This document shows, piece after piece, positions 4,277-46,388 of a DNA stretch of 64,000 nucleotides; position 1 is the first letter of the stretch; every line of letters starts with the position of its first letter. A program made the position numbers and the translations under genes. The notes under the pieces are model-generated. The model saw only the letters and a program-made list of their open reading frames with translations, did not search any database and had not been told where the DNA came from. The DNA comes from an uncultured bacterium. GTDB lineage: Bacteria; Patescibacteriota; Minisyncoccia; UBA6257; 2-01-FULL-56-20. The stretch spans positions 192,001 to 256,000 of the forward strand of contig CAWJQC010000007.1 of NCBI GenBank assembly GCA_963844965.1, written 5' to 3'.

Positions 4277-4357
4277 CTTGTATCTTATCGGGCGGCGTGG
4301 CTCAAATGGTGGACCTGCCGGCAGGCGGGGATGATACAGTCGGCCGCGCGCACGACC

Positions 4358-4399
4358 GTCGCGGTAGCGGAGAAGGAGAAGGGGATGGGGAGGAAGTAG
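4358..4399 (+). repeat. copy 3 of ppsA 3'-terminal segment (VAVAEKEKGMGRK-stop in frame); 33-nt match gcgcacgac(c)gtcgcggtagcggagaaggaga extends upstream to 4349
   Basis: Matches the ppsA end over about 33 nt with 2 mismatches, then diverges; retains an in-frame stop. Confidence 0.8.
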
Positions 4400-4488
4400 G
4401 ATATTTGGAAAACAAAAAGCGGACAGGGTTTGACGCCTGCCCGCCGAGTTTCTGGTCCTCGTCAGATTTGCCGTTTTGCCGTTGGAGT

Positions 4489-4749
4489 TTAACCGGAGTG
4501 GGGGTCGACTCTCGATACGAACCACCCGAAGTTAACCCCGAAGGGTTCATATTCGATCACATCCCTTTCGTGGAGTTTCTTTGCAATCGCCGGAGAAGCG
4601 ATGATGTGAAATCCGCCAAGGAATCGTGCCGGCGTCCGCGCCGTTCCAAGGCCGAGGTCGCGAATAACCTGGTCATCATCCGCCGGATATAACAGGATGC
4701 GGTCCCCGTCGTCTTCTATCTTTCCAATCGTCAAGGTTGGGTTAGCCAT
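4489..4749 (-). CDS. hypothetical protein (86 aa), translationally coupled to the upstream gene
   Basis: Start ATG overlaps the stop of the 4742-5218 gene in ATGGCTAA; no recognisable domain. Confidence 0.45.
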   Translation of the reverse strand: MANPTLTIGKIEDDGDRILLYPADDDQVIRDLGLGTARTPARFLGGFHIIASPAIAKKLHERDVIEYEPFGVNFGWFVSRVDPHSG

Positions 4750-5218
4750 TGTCCACCTCCGACCTTTGGAGATAGTGCGCTTCGCGGCAGTGATAACAGC
4801 GAACCTTCTTGTCTGCCGCTGCAACTGCATCAGCGAATTGCGCAGCCGCTTCCTCGTTGTCCCATTGGCCAAGTTCGCGCTCCGCCACGGGCTCCAGGAA
4901 GAAGATTTCCTTTTCCTTGCCGGAGACCTTGCCGACATGCCCGTCAACGCCGGGGTTTTTCGCTACGACTCTCGCGATTGCGATGCGGGTATCGTTGCGG
5001 TCAGCATTGGCGAACACGAAGCAATCGCCGGGTAGTATGGCGAAAAGAGCGTGTTCGCGGTTCGCGTATCCCTTGCGTGGGACGAAGATGGGCTTTTTGG
5101 ATTTTCCTTCGCGGTCACAGATGATGACCGCATCGCCGGTGTTGGTGTACCCACCGCCGCATTCCCAAGCGGCGGTAAGACGTGACTTCGTTCGGTGGAC
5201 GGTGACGGTAGTATCCAT
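4742..5218 (-). CDS. hypothetical protein (about 158 aa) with C-terminal CxxC
   Basis: Start MDTTVTV preceded by AAAGGA Shine-Dalgarno; C-terminal CYHCREAHY; no clear family. Confidence 0.45.
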   Translation of the reverse strand: MDTTVTVHRTKSRLTAAWECGGGYTNTGDAVIICDREGKSKKPIFVPRKGYANREHALFAILPGDCFVFANADRNDTRIAIARVVAKNPGVDGHVGKVSGKEKEIFFLEPVAERELGQWDNEEAAAQFADAVAAADKKVRCYHCREAHYLQRSEVDNG

Positions 5219-27869: not shown

Positions 27870-28155
27870 TTCGCGAGGAAATATTGTTAACATCGACTCT
27901 CGTACCAACCTCCTCAAGACAGAAACTAGGACTCAAGCAGAAAATCTTTTGGAAATGTTGGCAGACAAAACTAAGTGGACATTTACGTCCGCTCATTGGC
28001 CGTGGGGTCCATATCAAACCACTCGATTTAGAAAAGGCAGCGTAAAACCTGGGAAGGCTCGTTACAACGCGCTTCTTGCTCAAAATCCCATATCTCTCGC
28101 GATTATCAGCCGAGAGAGTATTGAATATACGATAGACGAAAACGGAATGTTCTAG
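27820..28155 (+). CDS. hypothetical protein
   Basis: ORF overlapping the previous gene's end; no recognisable domain. Confidence 0.3.
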   Translation: MSLEEENVAVIKSRISDSRGNIVNIDSRTNLLKTETRTQAENLLEMLADKTKWTFTSAHWPWGPYQTTRFRKGSVKPGKARYNALLAQNPISLAIISRESIEYTIDENGMF

Positions 28156-29609
28156 AGCAATCTGTTTTGTGACGCCAAAACGCATTCTTCCTTCATGCGT
28201 TTTTCTGCAATCGCACAGTACTCGGGCGCAATATCAATTCCGATATACTTGTGCCCCAAATTCTTTGCCGCAACGGTAGTAGTGCCACTTCCAACAAAAG
28301 GATCTAAGACGACCCCATTTTTGGGACAGAAGCATTGTATGAAATCGTACGGCAATTGATTTGGAAATGTTGCCGGATGTTGATGTTTTAGTCGGCTGCC
28401 GTCACCGGCCGTGAGATATTCCCAAATCGTCCCCCGGCACTTCATGGGATTTATCTTGATGGGTCGGGTGTTTATCCGTGTGCCATTTGTCAGGCGAGTG
28501 CCTCCGCCTGTCAATGTTTTCCCGCCCCACTTAGACGGTATTTTGAGTGGTTCTTTATTGAAATGCTGTGGCCTTTCTCCTTTTAGGAAAATTGGCATAT
28601 ATTCGTGGTCGACACGGAAGCGTTTATTCCACCAAGCGCCCTCCGCGCCGTACTTTCTATAGATGGTGGTCTCAAAAAGTTTAAATCCTACATTATCACA
28701 CCAATCTATTATTGTTTTGAAAGAGGTCAGCGATTTCGCGAAATTTTTTGTTTGATCTTGGATGACCATTACGGCTACTCCGCCGTCTTTCAGCGCTCTG
28801 TATATTTCTCTTCCTGTCTCGTGGAGATTAAATTTCGGCCTTCCTTTGTAGTCGCGTACGGCATCGTACGGAGGCGAAGTGACTACAATATCCACCGAAT
28901 TGGGGGGAAACTCTTTCATTATATCTACCGCATCGCCGCAAATGATTTTATTTAGCGGCAATTCTTCATATTTTTTAACTTCTTTGTGCTCGGGAAGTTG
29001 TATTGTTGACGCTCCTTCTTCCCGGATAACATCAAGCACTATTCCTTGGATTGAAACATCTCGTCCGTTTCGGAAGATAAGCGGCTCCATATTTTTATTG
29101 GCCGGTTGCAAACGAATATGTCCTCGTTCTTTATAAAATTTCTTAAGTGTTGCTTCGTGATTATCAATAAGCGCCACCACTTTTTGTCCGTTCTCGGCGA
29201 TTTTCTGCTGTTTTACCAAAACGATATCTCCATCGTTGATATTCTCATCAACCATGCTATTACCGACAACCTTTAGTGCGTAAATCTGGCCAGAACCGGG
29301 TAATCTACTTTGAGGAACAGCGATGGTCTCTCTGTCTTCTATGGCCTCAATCGGTTGGCCTGCGGCTATGGTTCCCAGCAGAGAAATACTTATCATCTTT
29401 TCTGATTTTGAAATTTCTATCCCTCGCGGCTGACTCGTCGCCTTTGTCAATAATCCTTTCTCTTTCAACGATTCAATATGCTGGTGAATAGTTGAGACCG
29501 AACTTAACCGGAAATGCTTTTTAATTTCCTCAAGCGATGGAGCGAACCCCCTTTTCTTGGTAAAACTTTTTATAAAATCCAAAATTTGTTTTTGGCGTTT
29601 GGTTAGCAT
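28152..29609 (-). CDS. LexA repressor (HTH + S24 autopeptidase) fused to beta-class N4-cytosine/N6-adenine DNA methyltransferase
   Basis: N-terminal 200 aa match LexA end to end: KRQKQILDFIK HTH, AAG cleavage site, Ser nucleophile GNSM (Asn in place of canonical Asp), catalytic Lys in IVLVKQQ. C-terminal half has MTase motif IV SPPY, motif I DPFVGSGTT and target-recognition region. Confidence 0.8.
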   Translation of the reverse strand: MLTKRQKQILDFIKSFTKKRGFAPSLEEIKKHFRLSSVSTIHQHIESLKEKGLLTKATSQPRGIEISKSEKMISISLLGTIAAGQPIEAIEDRETIAVPQSRLPGSGQIYALKVVGNSMVDENINDGDIVLVKQQKIAENGQKVVALIDNHEATLKKFYKERGHIRLQPANKNMEPLIFRNGRDVSIQGIVLDVIREEGASTIQLPEHKEVKKYEELPLNKIICGDAVDIMKEFPPNSVDIVVTSPPYDAVRDYKGRPKFNLHETGREIYRALKDGGVAVMVIQDQTKNFAKSLTSFKTIIDWCDNVGFKLFETTIYRKYGAEGAWWNKRFRVDHEYMPIFLKGERPQHFNKEPLKIPSKWGGKTLTGGGTRLTNGTRINTRPIKINPMKCRGTIWEYLTAGDGSRLKHQHPATFPNQLPYDFIQCFCPKNGVVLDPFVGSGTTTVAAKNLGHKYIGIDIAPEYCAIAEKRMKEECVLASQNRLL

Positions 29610-34216: not shown

Positions 34217-34395
34217 ATTTTGTCGTGGTGTTGTTTAATTATATCAAATGACGGGTGTGGGAGTTTGCCATTACAAGCAGGACCCGAGGAAAGTTTCCGC
34301 ATAGGCATTTCCATCGCGCGGCACGATGATTTCGTGCCGCTTTTATTTTCTTGTCTTTTATTGAAAAATTTGCTAAATTTTATACGTAAAGTTGT

Positions 34396-34466
34396 GCCAC
34401 CTTAGCTCAGCGGTAGAGCAGCACTTTCGTAAAGTGACGGTCCCGGTTCAAATCCGGGAGGTGGCT
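34396..34466 (+). tRNA. tRNA, anticodon most likely CGT (Thr); CCA not encoded
   Basis: Acceptor gccacct/aggtggc, D arm gctc-agcggta-gagc, anticodon loop ttCGTaa, T arm cccgg-ttcaaat-ccggg. Confidence 0.75.
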
Positions 34467-34598
34467 CAAAACCGACCGGATTTGAACGAAGGGTGGGTCG
34501 GAGGGAAAGCGGCCGGGTTCCCTCCGTGCGGGAAATTATTCAGAACCGTGGGTTCTGAAAGCGCAGCCCCGAGCTTGTCGAGGGGCGAGCAGTGAAAT

Positions 34599-34615
34599 AT
34601 CCGGGAGGTGGCTCA
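34599..34615 (+). repeat. 17-nt direct repeat of the tRNA 3' end (atccgggaggtggctca; first copy 34452-34468)
   Basis: Exact duplicate of the T-loop-to-3'-end segment 147 bp downstream; att-like. Confidence 0.7.
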
Positions 34616-34808
34616 GAGAAGTGGCGGGGTGAAGCGGAGCAATGCTTTTCCGCCAGAGGCGGATAAACTCCAAGCAGAGGTTGGAGGCCTGCCCCGTACA
34701 ATTGCGAAGCAATTTGTTCGGGGTTCGACTCCTCCCTGCCGGCAGGCGGGCCTGCCGGCGCAGGCGGGTCTCCGGCTCCAGAAAATAAATTTAAAATATA
34801 CGTAATTA

Positions 34809-35213
34809 ATGGGGAGAAAACGTAAAGACACTTTCAGCGGAGAACTATTTCCTGCTCCCGAGGAATCGCCTTTTGCTCCTGAAGAGATGGATAAGGCGGC
34901 GGAAGCTCTCGCGGCATCCGCCGAGGATACACCTCTCGGAGAGCCGCCGCCGGAGAACGAAGGTGATGAGTGGAGAGAAGCGCCTAAAAAAGAACCGTAT
35001 GCCTTCGGCGAGAGAATCCATAAACTGGACATGGGTCGTTTGGTGCTTTGTCCGGAATGCGGCGCTAAATTCAAAGGCAAGAGGCCGAGTATCGGGTTTG
35101 GCGAGATGAAATTCACGTGCTCGGCAGATAGCAACCACCGTTGGATTTTTGTTGCGGACAAAGATCCTGCCTCCGAGGGTGGCGTTGTCAAGAACCTGAA
35201 CGAGCAGAATTAA
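34809..35213 (+). CDS. hypothetical acidic protein with C-terminal zinc-ribbon-like CPEC...C motif
   Basis: ORF with CPECGAKFKGK...FTCSAD; no family assigned. Confidence 0.4.
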   Translation: MGRKRKDTFSGELFPAPEESPFAPEEMDKAAEALAASAEDTPLGEPPPENEGDEWREAPKKEPYAFGERIHKLDMGRLVLCPECGAKFKGKRPSIGFGEMKFTCSADSNHRWIFVADKDPASEGGVVKNLNEQN

Positions 35214-35253
35214 TCTTCTAATCGGCTTAAGTTTTTTAAGGCAACCAGCTTCA

Positions 35254-36429
35254 TGGACTACAAACAAGAACTTCAGGAGCTTGAGGCTGAAGCCCGGCGG
35301 TTAGCCGGGCGGCTTTGACGTAGCGGGCAAGGAGCGAGAGATAGAAAAGTTGGAAGCCGAAATGTCCAGCGCAGGTTTTTGGTCGGACCGTGCGGCGGCA
35401 GACGAGAAAATAAAAACTCTTGGCGAGTTGCGTGATTTGGTTGATAAGTTTCATGTGATCGAGACCGGAATCAAAGAATTAAACGAGAAGGATATTACTC
35501 CTGCGCCTCCGAATGCCTTATCTCACGGAGTTATACCTACTCCTATTTCAAAATCTAAAGAATTAAAGGATGAGGATTTTACTTTGGTGTCTCCGGATTC
35601 CCTATCACACGGAGTTATACCCACTCCAATTTCTAAAACTTCCAAATTTTTCGAAATAAAAAAGAAACTCAGAGACCTTGAACTGACCACACTTTTTACT
35701 GGCAGGTATGACAAGCAGGCGGCCGTGCTTTCGGTGTATCCGGGCGCGGGCGGCGATGATGCCGAAGATTGGGCGCGGATGCTCGCTGAAATGTATGAAA
35801 ATTACGCCAAACGCCGCGGCTGGCAGCATAAAATGATTGACGACAATCCGCGCTCGCGAACATTTGAAGTTCGCGGCGCCTACGCTTATGGTTATCTGAA
35901 GAAAGAAGCCGGCGTTCACCGGCTCGTCAGAATTTCGCCGTTCTCGGCGAAGAAACTGCGGCACACGTCGTTCGCTTTGGTTGAGGTCGTGCCGGATCTG
36001 CCACCGGTTGAAGAGGCCAAGCTGCAAATTCCGGAAAAAGATCTGAAGCTGGAGTTTTCGCGAGCGGGCGGGCCGGGCGGCCAGAATGTGAACAAAGTGG
36101 AAACGGCGGTGCGGATAGTACACTTACCGACGGGGCTCGCCGTGAGTTCCCGCGCCGAGCGGGCGCAGGCGCAGAACCGCGAGCGGGCAATGAAACTCCT
36201 GAAGGCCAAGATATTCCAGCTGATGGAAAAGAATCAGGTGAAGGAATTGAGTGAGCTTCGGGTAAAGGTGAAACCGGAGTGGGGTAATCAGATCCGTTCT
36301 TACGTTTTGAATCCTTACCAGTTGGTGAAAGATCACAGAACCGAGGCGGAAACCGTGAGAGTTCACGAGGTTCTTGCCGGTGATTTGGACTCATTCATTG
36401 AAGCAGAGGCGGAATCCGGGCTAACTTAA
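35254..36429 (+). CDS. prfB: peptide chain release factor 2 with programmed +1 frameshift (CTT TGA C at 35313-35319)
   Basis: ORF0 [21 protein letters not shown] stops at TGA followed by C; the +1 frame continues [16 protein letters not shown]...; SPF and GGQ motifs present. Confidence 0.9.
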
Positions 36430-43919: not shown

Positions 43920-45169
43920 ATGGCTGAATTAAAACGCGACGCCTCTTTTCTTAAAATAGAGATAGAAAAAGATCTCGCGCGGCAGGTGGACAAGGTCTCC
44001 GTCGTTTCCTTGGTTGACTTGCTGGTGGAGTACGCTTATATCTTGCGCGCTTCCGACATCCACATTCAACCCGAGGAAAATTCGTTGCGCATCCGTTACC
44101 GCATAGATGGTCTCCTCCAGGATATTTTCCAGAAGATGACCATTCGCAAGGACATCCAGCCCGAAATCATCAGCCGCATAAAAGTTCTCGCCGGCTTGCG
44201 CACTGACGAGCACCTTGCTTCGCAGGACGGGAGGATCAAGGTTAAGGTCAAGGATTTCGGCGAAATCAGCGTCCGTGTTTCCATCGTGCCGACGTACAAC
44301 GGGGAGAACGCCATTTTGAGGGTGCTTGCCGAAACGCAGGGATTTACCGTGAACGATTTGGGATTTTTGCCGAACGACCTGAAGAAAGTTACGCACGCCA
44401 TGACGAAGCCCTACGGTATGATCCTCGCGAACGGTCCGACCGGTTCCGGTAAGACAACGACCCTCTACACGATTTTAAAAACCTTGAACAAGCCGGATAT
44501 TTCCATAGTGACCATAGAAGACCCTATTGAGTACGCATTGCCGGGAACCTCGCAAATTCAGACCAACGCCGACATAGGATTCACGTTCGCGAGCGGTCTC
44601 AGATCAATTCTGCGCCAAGATCCTGAACATCATCATGGTGGGCGATAATCCGCGACGAAGAGACGGCGGGAATAGCGGTGAACGCGGCCCTGACCGGCCA
44701 CCTCGTGCTTTCAACTCTGCACACCAACGATTCAGCAACAACCTTTCCCCGGCTCATAGATATGGGTGTGCCGCCATTCCTCGTAGCTTCAACGGTTAAC
44801 GTGGCGATGGGCCAGCGTCTTGTCCGGATGATATGCCAGAAGTGTAAGCAGCCGCGTAATTTTAGCGAGATGGAAATAAAAAGTTTGGCGGAAATCATTC
44901 CGGAGTCGGCAAAATATCACGGCAAGTTTTTCATAGGGAAAGGATGCCCCGCCTGCAATGGAACCGGCTATATCAGCCGCACTGGCATACGCGAAGTGTT
45001 GGAAGTGAACGAGACAATCAGCCAGCTTATCATGAACCGCGCGAACGCCAAGCAGATAAAGGATGCTGCTGTCAAAGCCGGAATGACCACGATGACAGAA
45101 GATGCCTTGGAGCGCGCTTCCAAGGGAGTCACCTCCATTGAGGAAATTTTGCGCATTATACACGAGTAG
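43920..45169 (+). pseudogene. pilB: type IV pilus assembly ATPase PilB/GspE family, disrupted by two single-nt insertions 18 nt apart (about 44626 and 44644)
   Basis: Walker A GPTGSGKTT; the DPDIIMVGEIRD motif is recoverable only by shifting frames twice; downstream ORF 44678-45169 carries the [14 protein letters not shown] and CxxC Zn motifs. Confidence 0.8.
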
Positions 45170-45308
45170 CGCGATGAATCCCGTTAGAAATCCTGCCGGC
45201 AGGCAGGCGCGGACGCTTTTCCAATGACACACCTATTGAACGGTCGAAGTATGTTAAGCAACAACGGTAGGCGCGGAGTTTTTCCGTCCGCGTCCTATTT
45301 CTAACGGG

Positions 45309-46388
45309 ATGAACAAATTTCAGAGAATTCTTTCCCGATTATTTGACAGCGTCCCGCTTCAGGACAAAATTAATTTCGCGCGGCATATGGCGCTTATCAT
45401 AAAAGCCGGATTGCCGATATACCAGGGACTGGGGATTATCCGCGCCCAAACGACTTCCAAGGTGCTCCTTAAGGTGATAGACAGCGTTATGGAAGACGTG
45501 AACAACGGGAAGTTTCTTGCCGACGGGTTGGAAAAATTTGAATATCTTTTCGGGACTTTTTTTGTGAACATCATCCGCGTGGGGGAATCGAGCGGGACCC
45601 TCGCCAAGAATTTCTTGTATCTTGCCGAAGAACTCAAAAAATCCAAAGCGCTCAAAAGCAAGGTCACTTCGGCAATGATATATCCGCTTGTGATTTTTGC
45701 TATGACTTTGGGAGTGACGGGTTTTCTGGCGTTTTTCGTTTTCCCGAAACTTCTGCCGGTATTCGCGAGCTTGAACGTCAAGCTGCCCATAACCACCGTC
45801 ATAATGATGGGCGTCCTCCAGTTTTTGCGCGAGTATTTCATAGAGCTCATAATCGGGGTCGTCATTCTTGTTGTCGCAGTTAGGATGATTATTAAGTACG
45901 TAACGCCGATAAAGTTCCTTCTGGATAAGTTGATTCTTGTAACGCCGGTAATCGGGCCGCTTTCCGTTGATGTTAATATGGTCAATTTTACGCGCGTCTT
46001 TGGATTGCTTTTGAAGAGCGGCGTAAAAATCTTGGAGGCGGCCATGATAACATCAAATACTTTTGAGAATATCGTCTACAGACGGGCGCTCGTAGCCGCG
46101 AAAGATGAAGTTCAGAAAGGCGGCCAGCTCGCGACCTATATGGGCGAAAAAAAGAGATATTTTCCTCCGCTAGTGACCGGCATGATACGCATCGGTGAGG
46201 ATACCGGCAATCTGGAAGAAAACCTGGACTACCTTTCGGAATATTACGAGGACGAAGTTGATACCAAGCTGCACGTTTTGACGAGCGTTCTTGAACCCTT
46301 GATGCTGCTTTTCATGGGGCTTCTCGTCGGATTCGTTGCTTTGTCCATTATCACGCCAATTTACTCCATTTCGCAGGGCATCCAGTAG
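45309..46388 (+). CDS. pilC: type IV pilus inner-membrane platform protein PilC (GspF family)
   Basis: Two GspF repeats and three TM segments; follows pilB. Confidence 0.85.
   Translation: MNKFQRILSRLFDSVPLQDKINFARHMALIIKAGLPIYQGLGIIRAQTTSKVLLKVIDSVMEDVNNGKFLADGLEKFEYLFGTFFVNIIRVGESSGTLAKNFLYLAEELKKSKALKSKVTSAMIYPLVIFAMTLGVTGFLAFFVFPKLLPVFASLNVKLPITTVIMMGVLQFLREYFIELIIGVVILVVAVRMIIKYVTPIKFLLDKLILVTPVIGPLSVDVNMVNFTRVFGLLLKSGVKILEAAMITSNTFENIVYRRALVAAKDEVQKGGQLATYMGEKKRYFPPLVTGMIRIGEDTGNLEENLDYLSEYYEDEVDTKLHVLTSVLEPLMLLFMGLLVGFVALSIITPIYSISQGIQ

Follow-up and report, generated by a model that had tools for sequence, protein, structure and literature searches.

A structured element bounded by copies of the neighboring tRNA tail behind a tRNA-Thr gene of Patescibacteria

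Behind a tRNA-Thr gene of an uncultured member of the Patescibacteria lies a small structured element, here called R1, which is enclosed by copies of the tail of that very tRNA. The locus was found in a 64,000-nt stretch of contig CAWJQC010000007.1 (the window, to which all coordinates refer unless a locus is named), on a Patescibacteria (Paceibacteria-like) chromosome, where its neighbors are a geranylgeranyl-reductase-like gene, RF2, and FtsE/FtsX; the closest relatives of the RF2 are from Paceibacterota metagenome-assembled genomes, at no more than 67% identity. As the original prediction for this DNA had stated, a 17-mer from the 3' end of the tRNA gene, ATCCGGGAGGTGGCTCA, is repeated exactly 147 nt downstream (34452-34468 and 34599-34615, with 130 nt in between). 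It covers T-loop positions 59-60, the T-stem 3' strand, the acceptor 3' strand, the discriminator, and CA. Instead of the generic repeat that had been considered as an alternative, the 17-mer is present exactly twice in the window, with no third copy even when 2 mismatches are permitted; none of 100 shuffles contained any match, and none is expected by chance. What had been overlooked is an inverted copy of the tRNA T-loop and T-stem directly behind the gene (34471-34487), forming 17-nt arms that are 88% complementary to 34446-34462. An independent Logan assembly contig (L202) is 100% identical to window positions 34442-35875 (1434 nt), which argues against an assembly artifact.

The locus thus reads [tail + flank]-turn-[inverted flank + inverted tail]-core-[tail], i.e., the 3' third of the tRNA is triplicated in direct-inverted-direct order (Table 1). 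The window copy is a minimal form of this arrangement, with a first turn of 8 nt that lacks a spacer hairpin and no terminator between tRNA-Thr and the element. All 3 hairpins previously noted in the interval are present, but the pairing of gccccgag with cgaggggc is imperfect, interrupted by the tandem G.A mismatch of the third hairpin. The inverted arm is able to pair with either direct copy, and the minimum free energy fold chooses the first; positions 55/56 of the heptamer that precedes the second copy are G,A and lie opposite A,G of the inverted arm. A further repeat, the 9-mer TATACGTAA, occurs just before the tRNA (34381-34389) and just before the downstream open reading frame (ORF; 34797-34805), but we estimate that about 0.7 such pairs are expected per 600 nt, and the pair was dismissed as being at chance level.

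Table 1. Features of the tRNA-Thr locus, in window coordinates.
Feature	Position	Strand	Description or support
Intact tRNA-Thr(CGT)	34396-34467	+	ARAGORN; Rfam RF00005 tRNA, 64.3 bits
T-stem 5' strand of tRNA-Thr(CGT)	34442-34446		
T-loop of tRNA-Thr(CGT)	34447-34453		
T-stem 3' strand of tRNA-Thr(CGT)	34454-34458		
Acceptor 3' strand of tRNA-Thr(CGT)	34459-34465		
Discriminator of tRNA-Thr(CGT)	34466		
D1, first direct tail copy (G53 to discriminator + CA), within the tRNA gene	34446-34468	+	Exact 17-mer repeat
I, inverted arm ACCGACCGGATTTGAAC	34471-34487	+	Reverse complement of tRNA positions 53-69, 2 mismatches
R1 core, purine-rich junction strands and three hairpins	34488-34591	+	Covariance model R1, 132.3 bits
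Hairpin hp1	34499-34526	+	Hairpin in R1 core
Hairpin hp2	34539-34559	+	Hairpin in R1 core
Hairpin hp3	34566-34586	+	Hairpin in R1 core; tandem G.A mismatch
T-loop-like heptamer GTGAAAT	34592-34598	+	Family consensus GTGARAT or GTTCRAT
D2, second direct tail copy (positions 59-75)	34599-34615	+	Identical to 34452-34468
Disrupted tRNA-Thr copy, different allele	34634-34781	+	Acceptor CTCCGGC, ends CTCCGGC-T-CCA-G, anticodon lost
Insert 1 of disrupted copy	34650-34671		In anticodon loop; matches L055 5703-5748 (87%)
Insert 2 of disrupted copy	34688-34723		Between positions 53/54; matches L078 1439-1483 (82%)
Insert 3 of disrupted copy	34736-34769		Between positions 65/66; GC-rich palindromes including CCTGCCGGCAGG

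The element is not confined to this locus. In a BLAST comparison with 80 related loci, the segment 34476-34607 recurred behind tRNA-Thr of other genomes and also behind tRNA-Leu, tRNA-Ala, and tRNA-Gln. A covariance model built from eight copies (CM R1) recovered 12 copies in 81 genome-derived sources and confirmed at least ~110 copies among 120 metagenome stretches listed by a degenerate pattern scan, while rejecting the high-GC pattern matches. The R1 family thus numbers at least ~120 copies, drawn from genomes of Patescibacteria and from metagenomes; the metagenome copies come from the pattern scan, and the family-wide counts given here are among the matches listed. The core has a constant size of ~105 nt across the copies, and its junction nucleotides (GAAC, CCGUG, GGA, and ACCGNGGGU) are near-invariant. 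Rfam 15 offered no family for the window copy or for 12 other loci, either at gathering thresholds or at E values up to 10 (window) and up to 1 (other loci), returning only tRNAs and chance matches, so that the hairpins are not explained by an Rfam family, an outcome that had been envisaged as counting against the original prediction; ARAGORN reported no tmRNA and no extra tRNA in the window. A full-text literature search yielded no description of the element, the closest subjects being group I introns in Patescibacteria tRNAs and template-switch models. We could therefore not find the family described, and it appears to be previously uncatalogued, being absent from both Rfam 15 and the searched literature.

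Evolutionary evidence for the fold comes from an alignment of 103 distinct sequences (A5), in which 25 pairs were scored. Standard pairs fill 94.9% of the cells, and double changes occur at 18 of the 25 pairs (508 cells); neither the paired fraction nor the covariation score was attained in any of 500 shuffles, and in controls with slid partners the paired fraction falls to 35-65%. Covariation was also seen in alignment A4, and an earlier MAFFT/RNAalifold analysis of eight sequences had given compensatory changes at 15 of the 25 pairs. G.U pairs exceed A.C pairs both in the core (61 versus 17) and in the arms (127 versus 64), indicating that the folded strand is the one that carries the tRNA. 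Covariation, the strand-specific excess of G.U, and the lack of an Rfam match all favor the suggestion that the interval encodes a small structured RNA, a reading that, judging from the sequences, was probably right in spirit. Cores on the same contig are only 54-78% identical (one tandem pair, 98%), compared with a median identity of 0.61 between contigs, and nearly all copies are structurally intact despite this divergence, pointing to selection on each copy and not to neutral decay.

Of 106 copies, 81 are located 2-185 nt 3' of a tRNA gene on the same strand, and these tRNAs represent 19 amino-acid specificities; for 13 of the remaining 25, which have no tRNA, the sequence available upstream was shorter than 400 nt. 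The arms, in each case, follow the neighbor. In the direct (3') arm, identity to the neighboring tRNA is 0.84-0.98 at positions 60-74 and drops to 0.52 at position 75, whereas positions 55 and 56 are identical in fractions of just 0.11 and 0.06, with G,A almost always in place of T,C; these residues face A,G of the inverted arm and therefore form a tandem G.A. In the inverted (5') arm, complementarity is 0.89-1.00 at positions 53-62, 0.57 at position 65, and 0.27-0.30 at positions 70-72. The stem that the arms can form has a median length of 17 bp. The acceptor 3' strand is present in every copy and the complementary 5' strand in ~30%, with the T-loop altered at 55/56. Where the tRNA itself contains a G.U pair, the inverted arm in 18 of 20 cases has the base that would make a Watson-Crick pair with the 3' strand, and hence it is an inverted copy of the tail and not a copy of the tRNA 5' strands; the same observation rules out a deletion derivative of a duplicated tRNA. 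Of 63 cases compared, CCA stands behind 11 of the distal copies and 9 of the genes, giving no sign of copying from mature tRNA. We note that most of these 63 element-bearing tRNA genes end in N73-C-A-N, and the scarcity of encoded CCA in them suggests a particular route of 3' maturation.

In contrast to the arms, the core is indifferent to the tRNA. Cores found in other organisms behind Leu, Arg, Gly, and Val tRNAs share 82-87% identity with that of the window, and core similarity is independent of tRNA type. Even between cores that are 85-93% identical, the spacers separating tRNA and element are unrelated in sequence (r = 0.06). At the orthologous position, tRNA-Thr upstream of RF2 is kept in most of the 80 related loci, and the element is present in ~6 of ~65.

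The R1 core occupies the second turn of the triplication, on the T-loop side, and at the other turn most loci have a long perfect hairpin. When the segment that starts at G53 of the tRNA and stops where the inverted arm ends was folded for 80 loci, nearly all of the 30 folds listed of these 80 formed one long hairpin (-20 to -120 kcal/mol); the end-to-end axis holds at least half of the pairs in 54 of the 80 loci and nearly all of them in 19 of those. A long, often perfect terminator-like hairpin stands behind 48 of 79 R1-bearing tRNAs, as opposed to 17 of 117 other tRNAs. Two simple accounts of the spacer hairpin were discarded: it is not cargo of the element, its sequence being unrelated between near-identical cores, and it is not simply the native tRNA terminator, given its four-fold enrichment at R1-bearing tRNAs. 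The same layout exists with other cores in the same position, in L033 (Arg, 4695-4815) and L073 (Lys, 4310-4420), and nearly without a core in L021 (4150-4215, minus strand), in all three between an inverted and a direct copy of the tail of the local tRNA; the architecture is thus more general than the R1 core. At some loci the direct repeats have multiplied: L124 (1-520, minus strand) has two units of 98% identity in tandem behind tRNA-Gln, and L171 (745-985) a perfect 72-nt direct duplication of the tail, the spacer hairpin, and part of the inverted arm. These two cases indicate that the direct repeats recombine or are re-copied, although in most loci, unlike L171, only positions 60-74 are repeated. 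Separately, a second conserved two-hairpin module was observed at the first turn of L108, L160, L006, and L033, behind Arg and Pro tRNAs; in L108 and L160 it lies in the spacer that separates tRNA and element.

Immediately downstream, the window bears traces of tRNA turnover. A T-loop-like motif, GGTTCGACTCC, which the original prediction had placed near 34700 and could not fold into a tRNA, is present at 34722-34732, and its refractoriness is explained by its being part of a second tRNA-Thr copy broken by three insertions. Once these are removed from 34616-34781, 51 of 53 aligned bases match the tRNA-Thr of L058 from the D-arm to position 73. The GC-rich hairpin noted nearby also exists, at 34738-34759 and with arms of 10 nt, i.e., slightly displaced and longer than described. 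This disrupted copy (34634-34781) is relic-like. The CCTGCCGGCAGG palindrome of its third insert recurs in the window at 4314 and 45192, as well as in 13 of 201 loci compared. In L055 (5552-5800), three tRNA-Thr tail alleles (CACTGGC, CATCGGC, and AGGTGGC) follow one functional tRNA-Thr in series, the last with the same anticodon-loop insert as window 34650-34671, which shows that the locus has a history of tRNA turnover. Short GC-rich palindromes of the form CCTGCC(N0-3)GGCAGG, at 4314, 34735, and 45192 of the window, reside in intergenic and tRNA-derived sequence of this clade, including partial tRNA-Ala copies in L055 and L064, and may represent a tiny mobile palindrome. One of them (CCTGCCGGCAGG) immediately follows GGGCGGCGTGGCTCAAATGGTGGA (4290-4335), which resembles the 5' part of a tRNA (acceptor plus D-arm) and received no tRNA call from ARAGORN or Rfam. 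Another lies within a unit of MITE-like appearance (MITE, miniature inverted-repeat transposable element) at 45180-45310, where 14-nt inverted repeats, ATCCCGTTAGAAAT and ATTTCTAACGGGAT, surround ~100 nt in the gap between T2SSE-like and T2SSF-like genes.

How might such an element work? It is built of a ~105-nt core, preceded by an inverted copy of tRNA positions 53 to ~65-72 and followed by a direct copy of positions ~60-74, and we consider the chances about even that window 34471-34615 is one member of a large family of small, protein-less Patescibacteria elements operating in the following way. The element RNA would be made together with the tRNA or just after it. In silico, the inverted arm and the distal tail copy form a long stem capped by the core; alternatively, the inverted arm would take the tRNA's own tail, leaving the distal copy to pair with the acceptor 5' strand. 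For the co-transcript 34396-34618, this swapped conformer is predicted at -98.9 kcal/mol, against -88.4 kcal/mol for the tRNA plus a self-folded element, and the acceptor is predicted to be paired with the distal copy with a probability of 0.99. All that such folds show is that the element would be suited to competing for the 3' strand of one single tRNA, or to taking its place. On these models we favor a plus-strand RNA that may serve as a tRNA-specific strand-swap device or tail mimic. Instead of being carried along by the element, the arms and the spacer hairpin could arise on the spot, if the tRNA gene were copied by templated fold-back or template switching from a seed in the T-loop, whose GTTCRA is universally conserved; template switching fits, since the arms are Watson-Crick-exact and local and the palindromic spacers are not conserved. 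In this manner, one core family would be able to colonize tRNA genes whatever their specificity and would need no recombinase of its own, the copies presumably being kept intact by selection at each locus. In its boldest form, the proposal is a protein-free programmable tRNA-gene element, whose RNA or single-stranded DNA core spreads to any tRNA gene and copies the tail of that gene onto both of its sides, with the direct-inverted-direct unit as a tRNA-specific strand-swap switch or tail mimic that controls the maturation of one tRNA species or competes with its 3' end. This we put forward tentatively, as a possibility with the balance tilted against it.

Several considerations weigh against the proposed strand-swap element. 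The metagenome pattern pre-selected copies with conserved hp2/hp3 flanks, and the pair counts rest on alignments fitted to the model, which favors structure. G.T pairs are tolerated in DNA hairpins too, so that the folded molecule could be either RNA or single-stranded DNA. Full minihelix mimicry is not general, as only ~30% of the inverted arms reach the acceptor. A terminator-like hairpin separates tRNA and element in ~60% of loci, and no promoter was recognized at R1 loci. The thermodynamic folds ignore co-transcriptional folding and kinetics, tRNA tertiary structure, and processing. Among 200 loci there was no informative pair of empty and filled sites, and thus no insertion boundaries are defined; an exact-protein look-up for empty sites returned only the identical contig. 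Finally, template switching would be needed at three points and would include a jump to a distant donor core, which seems too infrequent for 19 tRNA types to have been colonized in this way, and a trans-acting enzyme could still have a part in the spread of the element.

Enzymes and partners were sought at several levels. Pfam searches of 50 of the 75 candidate ORFs of the window found housekeeping genes only, with no integrase, reverse transcriptase, Rep, IntI, or Xer, and when all ORFs within 4 kb of ~120 copies were clustered, representatives of the recurrent families revealed no integrase, reverse transcriptase, or recurrent partner protein; the largest non-syntenic ORF clusters near copies are ABC ATPases, a response regulator, and PNPase. 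Two scans of viral contigs produced, respectively, nothing and one false positive, which CM R1 rejected. The sole suggestive partner is a small GIY-YIG ORF, seen at 4-5 loci. Stand-alone GIY-YIG ORFs of 83-99 aa lie directly upstream of tRNAs in L060 (566-826, Tyr), L064 (9597-9848, Gln), L124 (444-737, Gln), L142 (1669-1932, Val), and L054 (9779-10078, Gln); these five are among nine such ORFs in 1.5 Mb, and four of the five tRNAs bear the element. They may be linked to turnover of tRNA alleles at those loci.

These searches bear directly on the explanation from which the study started, namely that the interval is an attL/attR scar left when an integrase-borne prophage or island entered the T-loop of tRNA-Thr and was later almost wholly deleted. 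A direct repeat of a tRNA 3' segment beginning in the T-loop agrees with this history, as do the older tRNA-Thr remnants further downstream, which reveal a locus that turns over. For 34469-34615, however, the scar is not borne out by the comparison: the interval consists of an inverted arm and a conserved core instead of decayed element DNA, and it belongs to a family of uniform size, with compensatory changes, behind 19 types of tRNA. The distance to the upstream tail copy never exceeds 323 nt, and the accompanying inverted tail copy is not explained by att sites. Third tail copies are few; of four loci checked, three have one 1.3-3.5 kb downstream, and the ORFs bracketed there are housekeeping genes or have no Pfam match. 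The integrase genes proposed as a place to look were missing from the scanned window ORFs and from the ORF families near the copies, no integrase turned up anywhere else examined, and viral contigs had no matches. We regard a scar as extremely unlikely. A related idea holds that the tails were reverse-transcribed from mature tRNA, which would have served as primer or template of cDNA synthesis in the manner of Neurospora retroplasmids or retroviral primer-binding sites. The identity does begin just 3' of position 58-59, and in L013, L058, and L060 the distal tail reads N-CCA where the gene does not, but overall CCA is no more frequent in the distal copies than in the genes. Moreover, the inverted arm has its firm end at the T-loop and loses its match in the 3' direction, the opposite of what a cDNA started at CCA would do, and the scanned ORFs contain no reverse transcriptase. 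According to a published survey, no group II introns have been reported in Patescibacteria (PMC13011429). Retro-copying accordingly appears highly improbable.

More of the data can be accommodated by a folded single-strand integrative mini-element, in which the unit of tail copy, spacer hairpin, inverted arm, core, and heptamer excises as a small circle; its plus strand would fold to a rod whose stem mimics the duplex 3' end of the tRNA gene, and a host tyrosine recombinase (Xer- or IntI-like) would swap one strand within positions 60-74, as for CTX-phage attP and integron attC. The order of tRNA, unit, and tail is exactly the expected product, the identity block of positions 60-74 stops at the tRNA end, imperfect stems with a fixed mismatch pair and a strand bias suit a folded single strand, tandem arrays occur (L124), and frequent excision, if real, would bring selection on the distal copy. 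Yet the arms and spacer hairpin are wholly changed between cores that are 85-93% identical, meaning that the circle would have to be rebuilt for each tRNA, and a non-cognate tRNA would not survive the insertion. The stem has its AAC/GT pair at the tip and not at the base as in attC, no recombinase was seen in the scanned window ORFs or near other copies, and no viral or circular form was found, which leaves this mechanism distinctly improbable. A cellular trans-acting noncoding RNA, for which the tRNA-tail stem is only a processing and stability cassette (trimmed by RNase P, RNase Z, and the CCA-adding enzyme), the core a protein sponge or ribozyme, and the mobility only apparent, would account for the structural selection on every copy, the invariant CCGUG, GGA, and ACCGNGGGU of the junctions, the conservation of the direct arm through the discriminator and C74, the full acceptor-plus-T-stem helix of ~30% of copies, and the within-genome copies as old paralogues. 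A generic cassette, however, need not match the neighboring tRNA, and the core phylogeny crosses tRNA types; the element is present at some orthologous tRNA-Thr/RF2 loci and absent from others, the acceptor 5' strand is missing from most copies, and there is no evident promoter. We therefore hold the purely cellular RNA to be rather unlikely.

Two other features of the window are recorded for completeness. A single 485-aa ORF on the minus strand (28152-29609) encodes an unusual fusion, in which a LexA DNA-binding domain is joined to S24 peptidase and N6/N4 DNA methylase domains, and a T2SSE secretion ATPase is divided between two adjacent plus-strand ORFs, 43920-44648 and 44678-45169 (profile positions 3-213 and 231-370), a division that may stem from a frameshift, mark a pseudogene, or be genuine.

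The Patescibacteria account for a large part of bacterial diversity; their genomes are tiny, and cultivation is seldom possible. If the proposed strand-swap element is real, these reduced genomes would harbor a new class of tRNA-linked riboregulator and mobile element, with at least ~120 conserved structured copies, each fitted to one tRNA and without a protein of its own. Either mobile elements would then have a new means of selecting a target and copying it, or tRNA-specific regulation by RNA would have a new layer. There is also a consequence for genome annotation, in which repeats of tRNA 3' ends are routinely taken as att sites for calling islands: here, 17 of the 130 tRNAs in the sample have a distal copy of their own tail and no island. 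The family can be searched for with the covariance model in combination with an arm rule (positions 53-63 copied in inverted orientation, 60-74 in direct orientation).

Placed among known systems, the element shares with tRNA att sites of islands and prophages (T-loop class) the repeat of a 3' segment from the T-loop to the tRNA end and an intact gene. It differs from them in having neither integrase nor cargo, in its constant, covarying ~105-nt core and extra inverted copy, and in the occurrence of that core behind 19 kinds of tRNA with the arms rewritten each time; one integrase lineage would be expected to keep to one tRNA sublocation or identity, whereas R1 is spread over 19 types. Integron attC and CTX-phage attP(+) resemble it as imperfect, structure-defined hairpins with a fixed stem mismatch, one active strand, and a variable tip. 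In R1, however, the stem sequence is copied from the neighboring gene and the base is acceptor sequence; attC has its RYYYAAC/GTTRRRY core sites, and the crossover, at the stem base, while AAC and GT(T/G) flank the R1 core at the tip, and the element has no association with IntI or Xer in the scanned ORFs and no cassette ORFs.

Like tRNA-like RNAs (the tmRNA domain, viral 3' structures, and minihelix substrates), R1 copies possess a T-stem, an acceptor 3' strand, a discriminator, and C74, with a continuous acceptor/T-stem helix in ~30% of them and a large insert at the loop, but they copy an adjacent tRNA of any specificity, match no tRNA or tmRNA model, and mostly lack the acceptor 5' strand, the T-loop being altered. 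In size (~150-170 nt), imperfect palindromic form, lack of protein, copy number, and intergenic position, the element is reminiscent of MITEs, Correia elements, enterobacterial repetitive intergenic consensus (ERIC), and repetitive extragenic palindromic (REP) sequences. Those have conserved terminal inverted repeats and a variable center, whereas R1 has a conserved center and arms taken from the target; unlike MITE and REP copies, its copies within a genome are old and divergent, and the arms differ for each tRNA. The group I introns of Patescibacteria tRNAs, found in the same phylum, are likewise structured RNAs tied to tRNA genes, but they are located in the anticodon loop (35/36), are much larger, and match RF00028 (PMC13011429), whereas R1 leaves the tRNA intact, lies behind it, has a ~105-nt core, and does not match RF00028. 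A geometric parallel may be drawn with inverted triplications produced by replication template switching, i.e., tandem inversion duplication and origin-dependent inverted-repeat amplification (ODIRA), for which a model has been published (PMC4689423), and with perfect hairpins attributed to template switching in another model (PMC8794818). R1 loci share with these the direct-inverted-direct order, hairpin junctions, arms that are Watson-Crick-exact at origin, and long, perfect spacer palindromes of unconserved sequence. The known cases are sporadic and usually of kilobase scale, whereas the triplicated unit at R1 loci measures 15-90 nt, recurs at tRNA tails, and holds a conserved structured module at one of its junctions.

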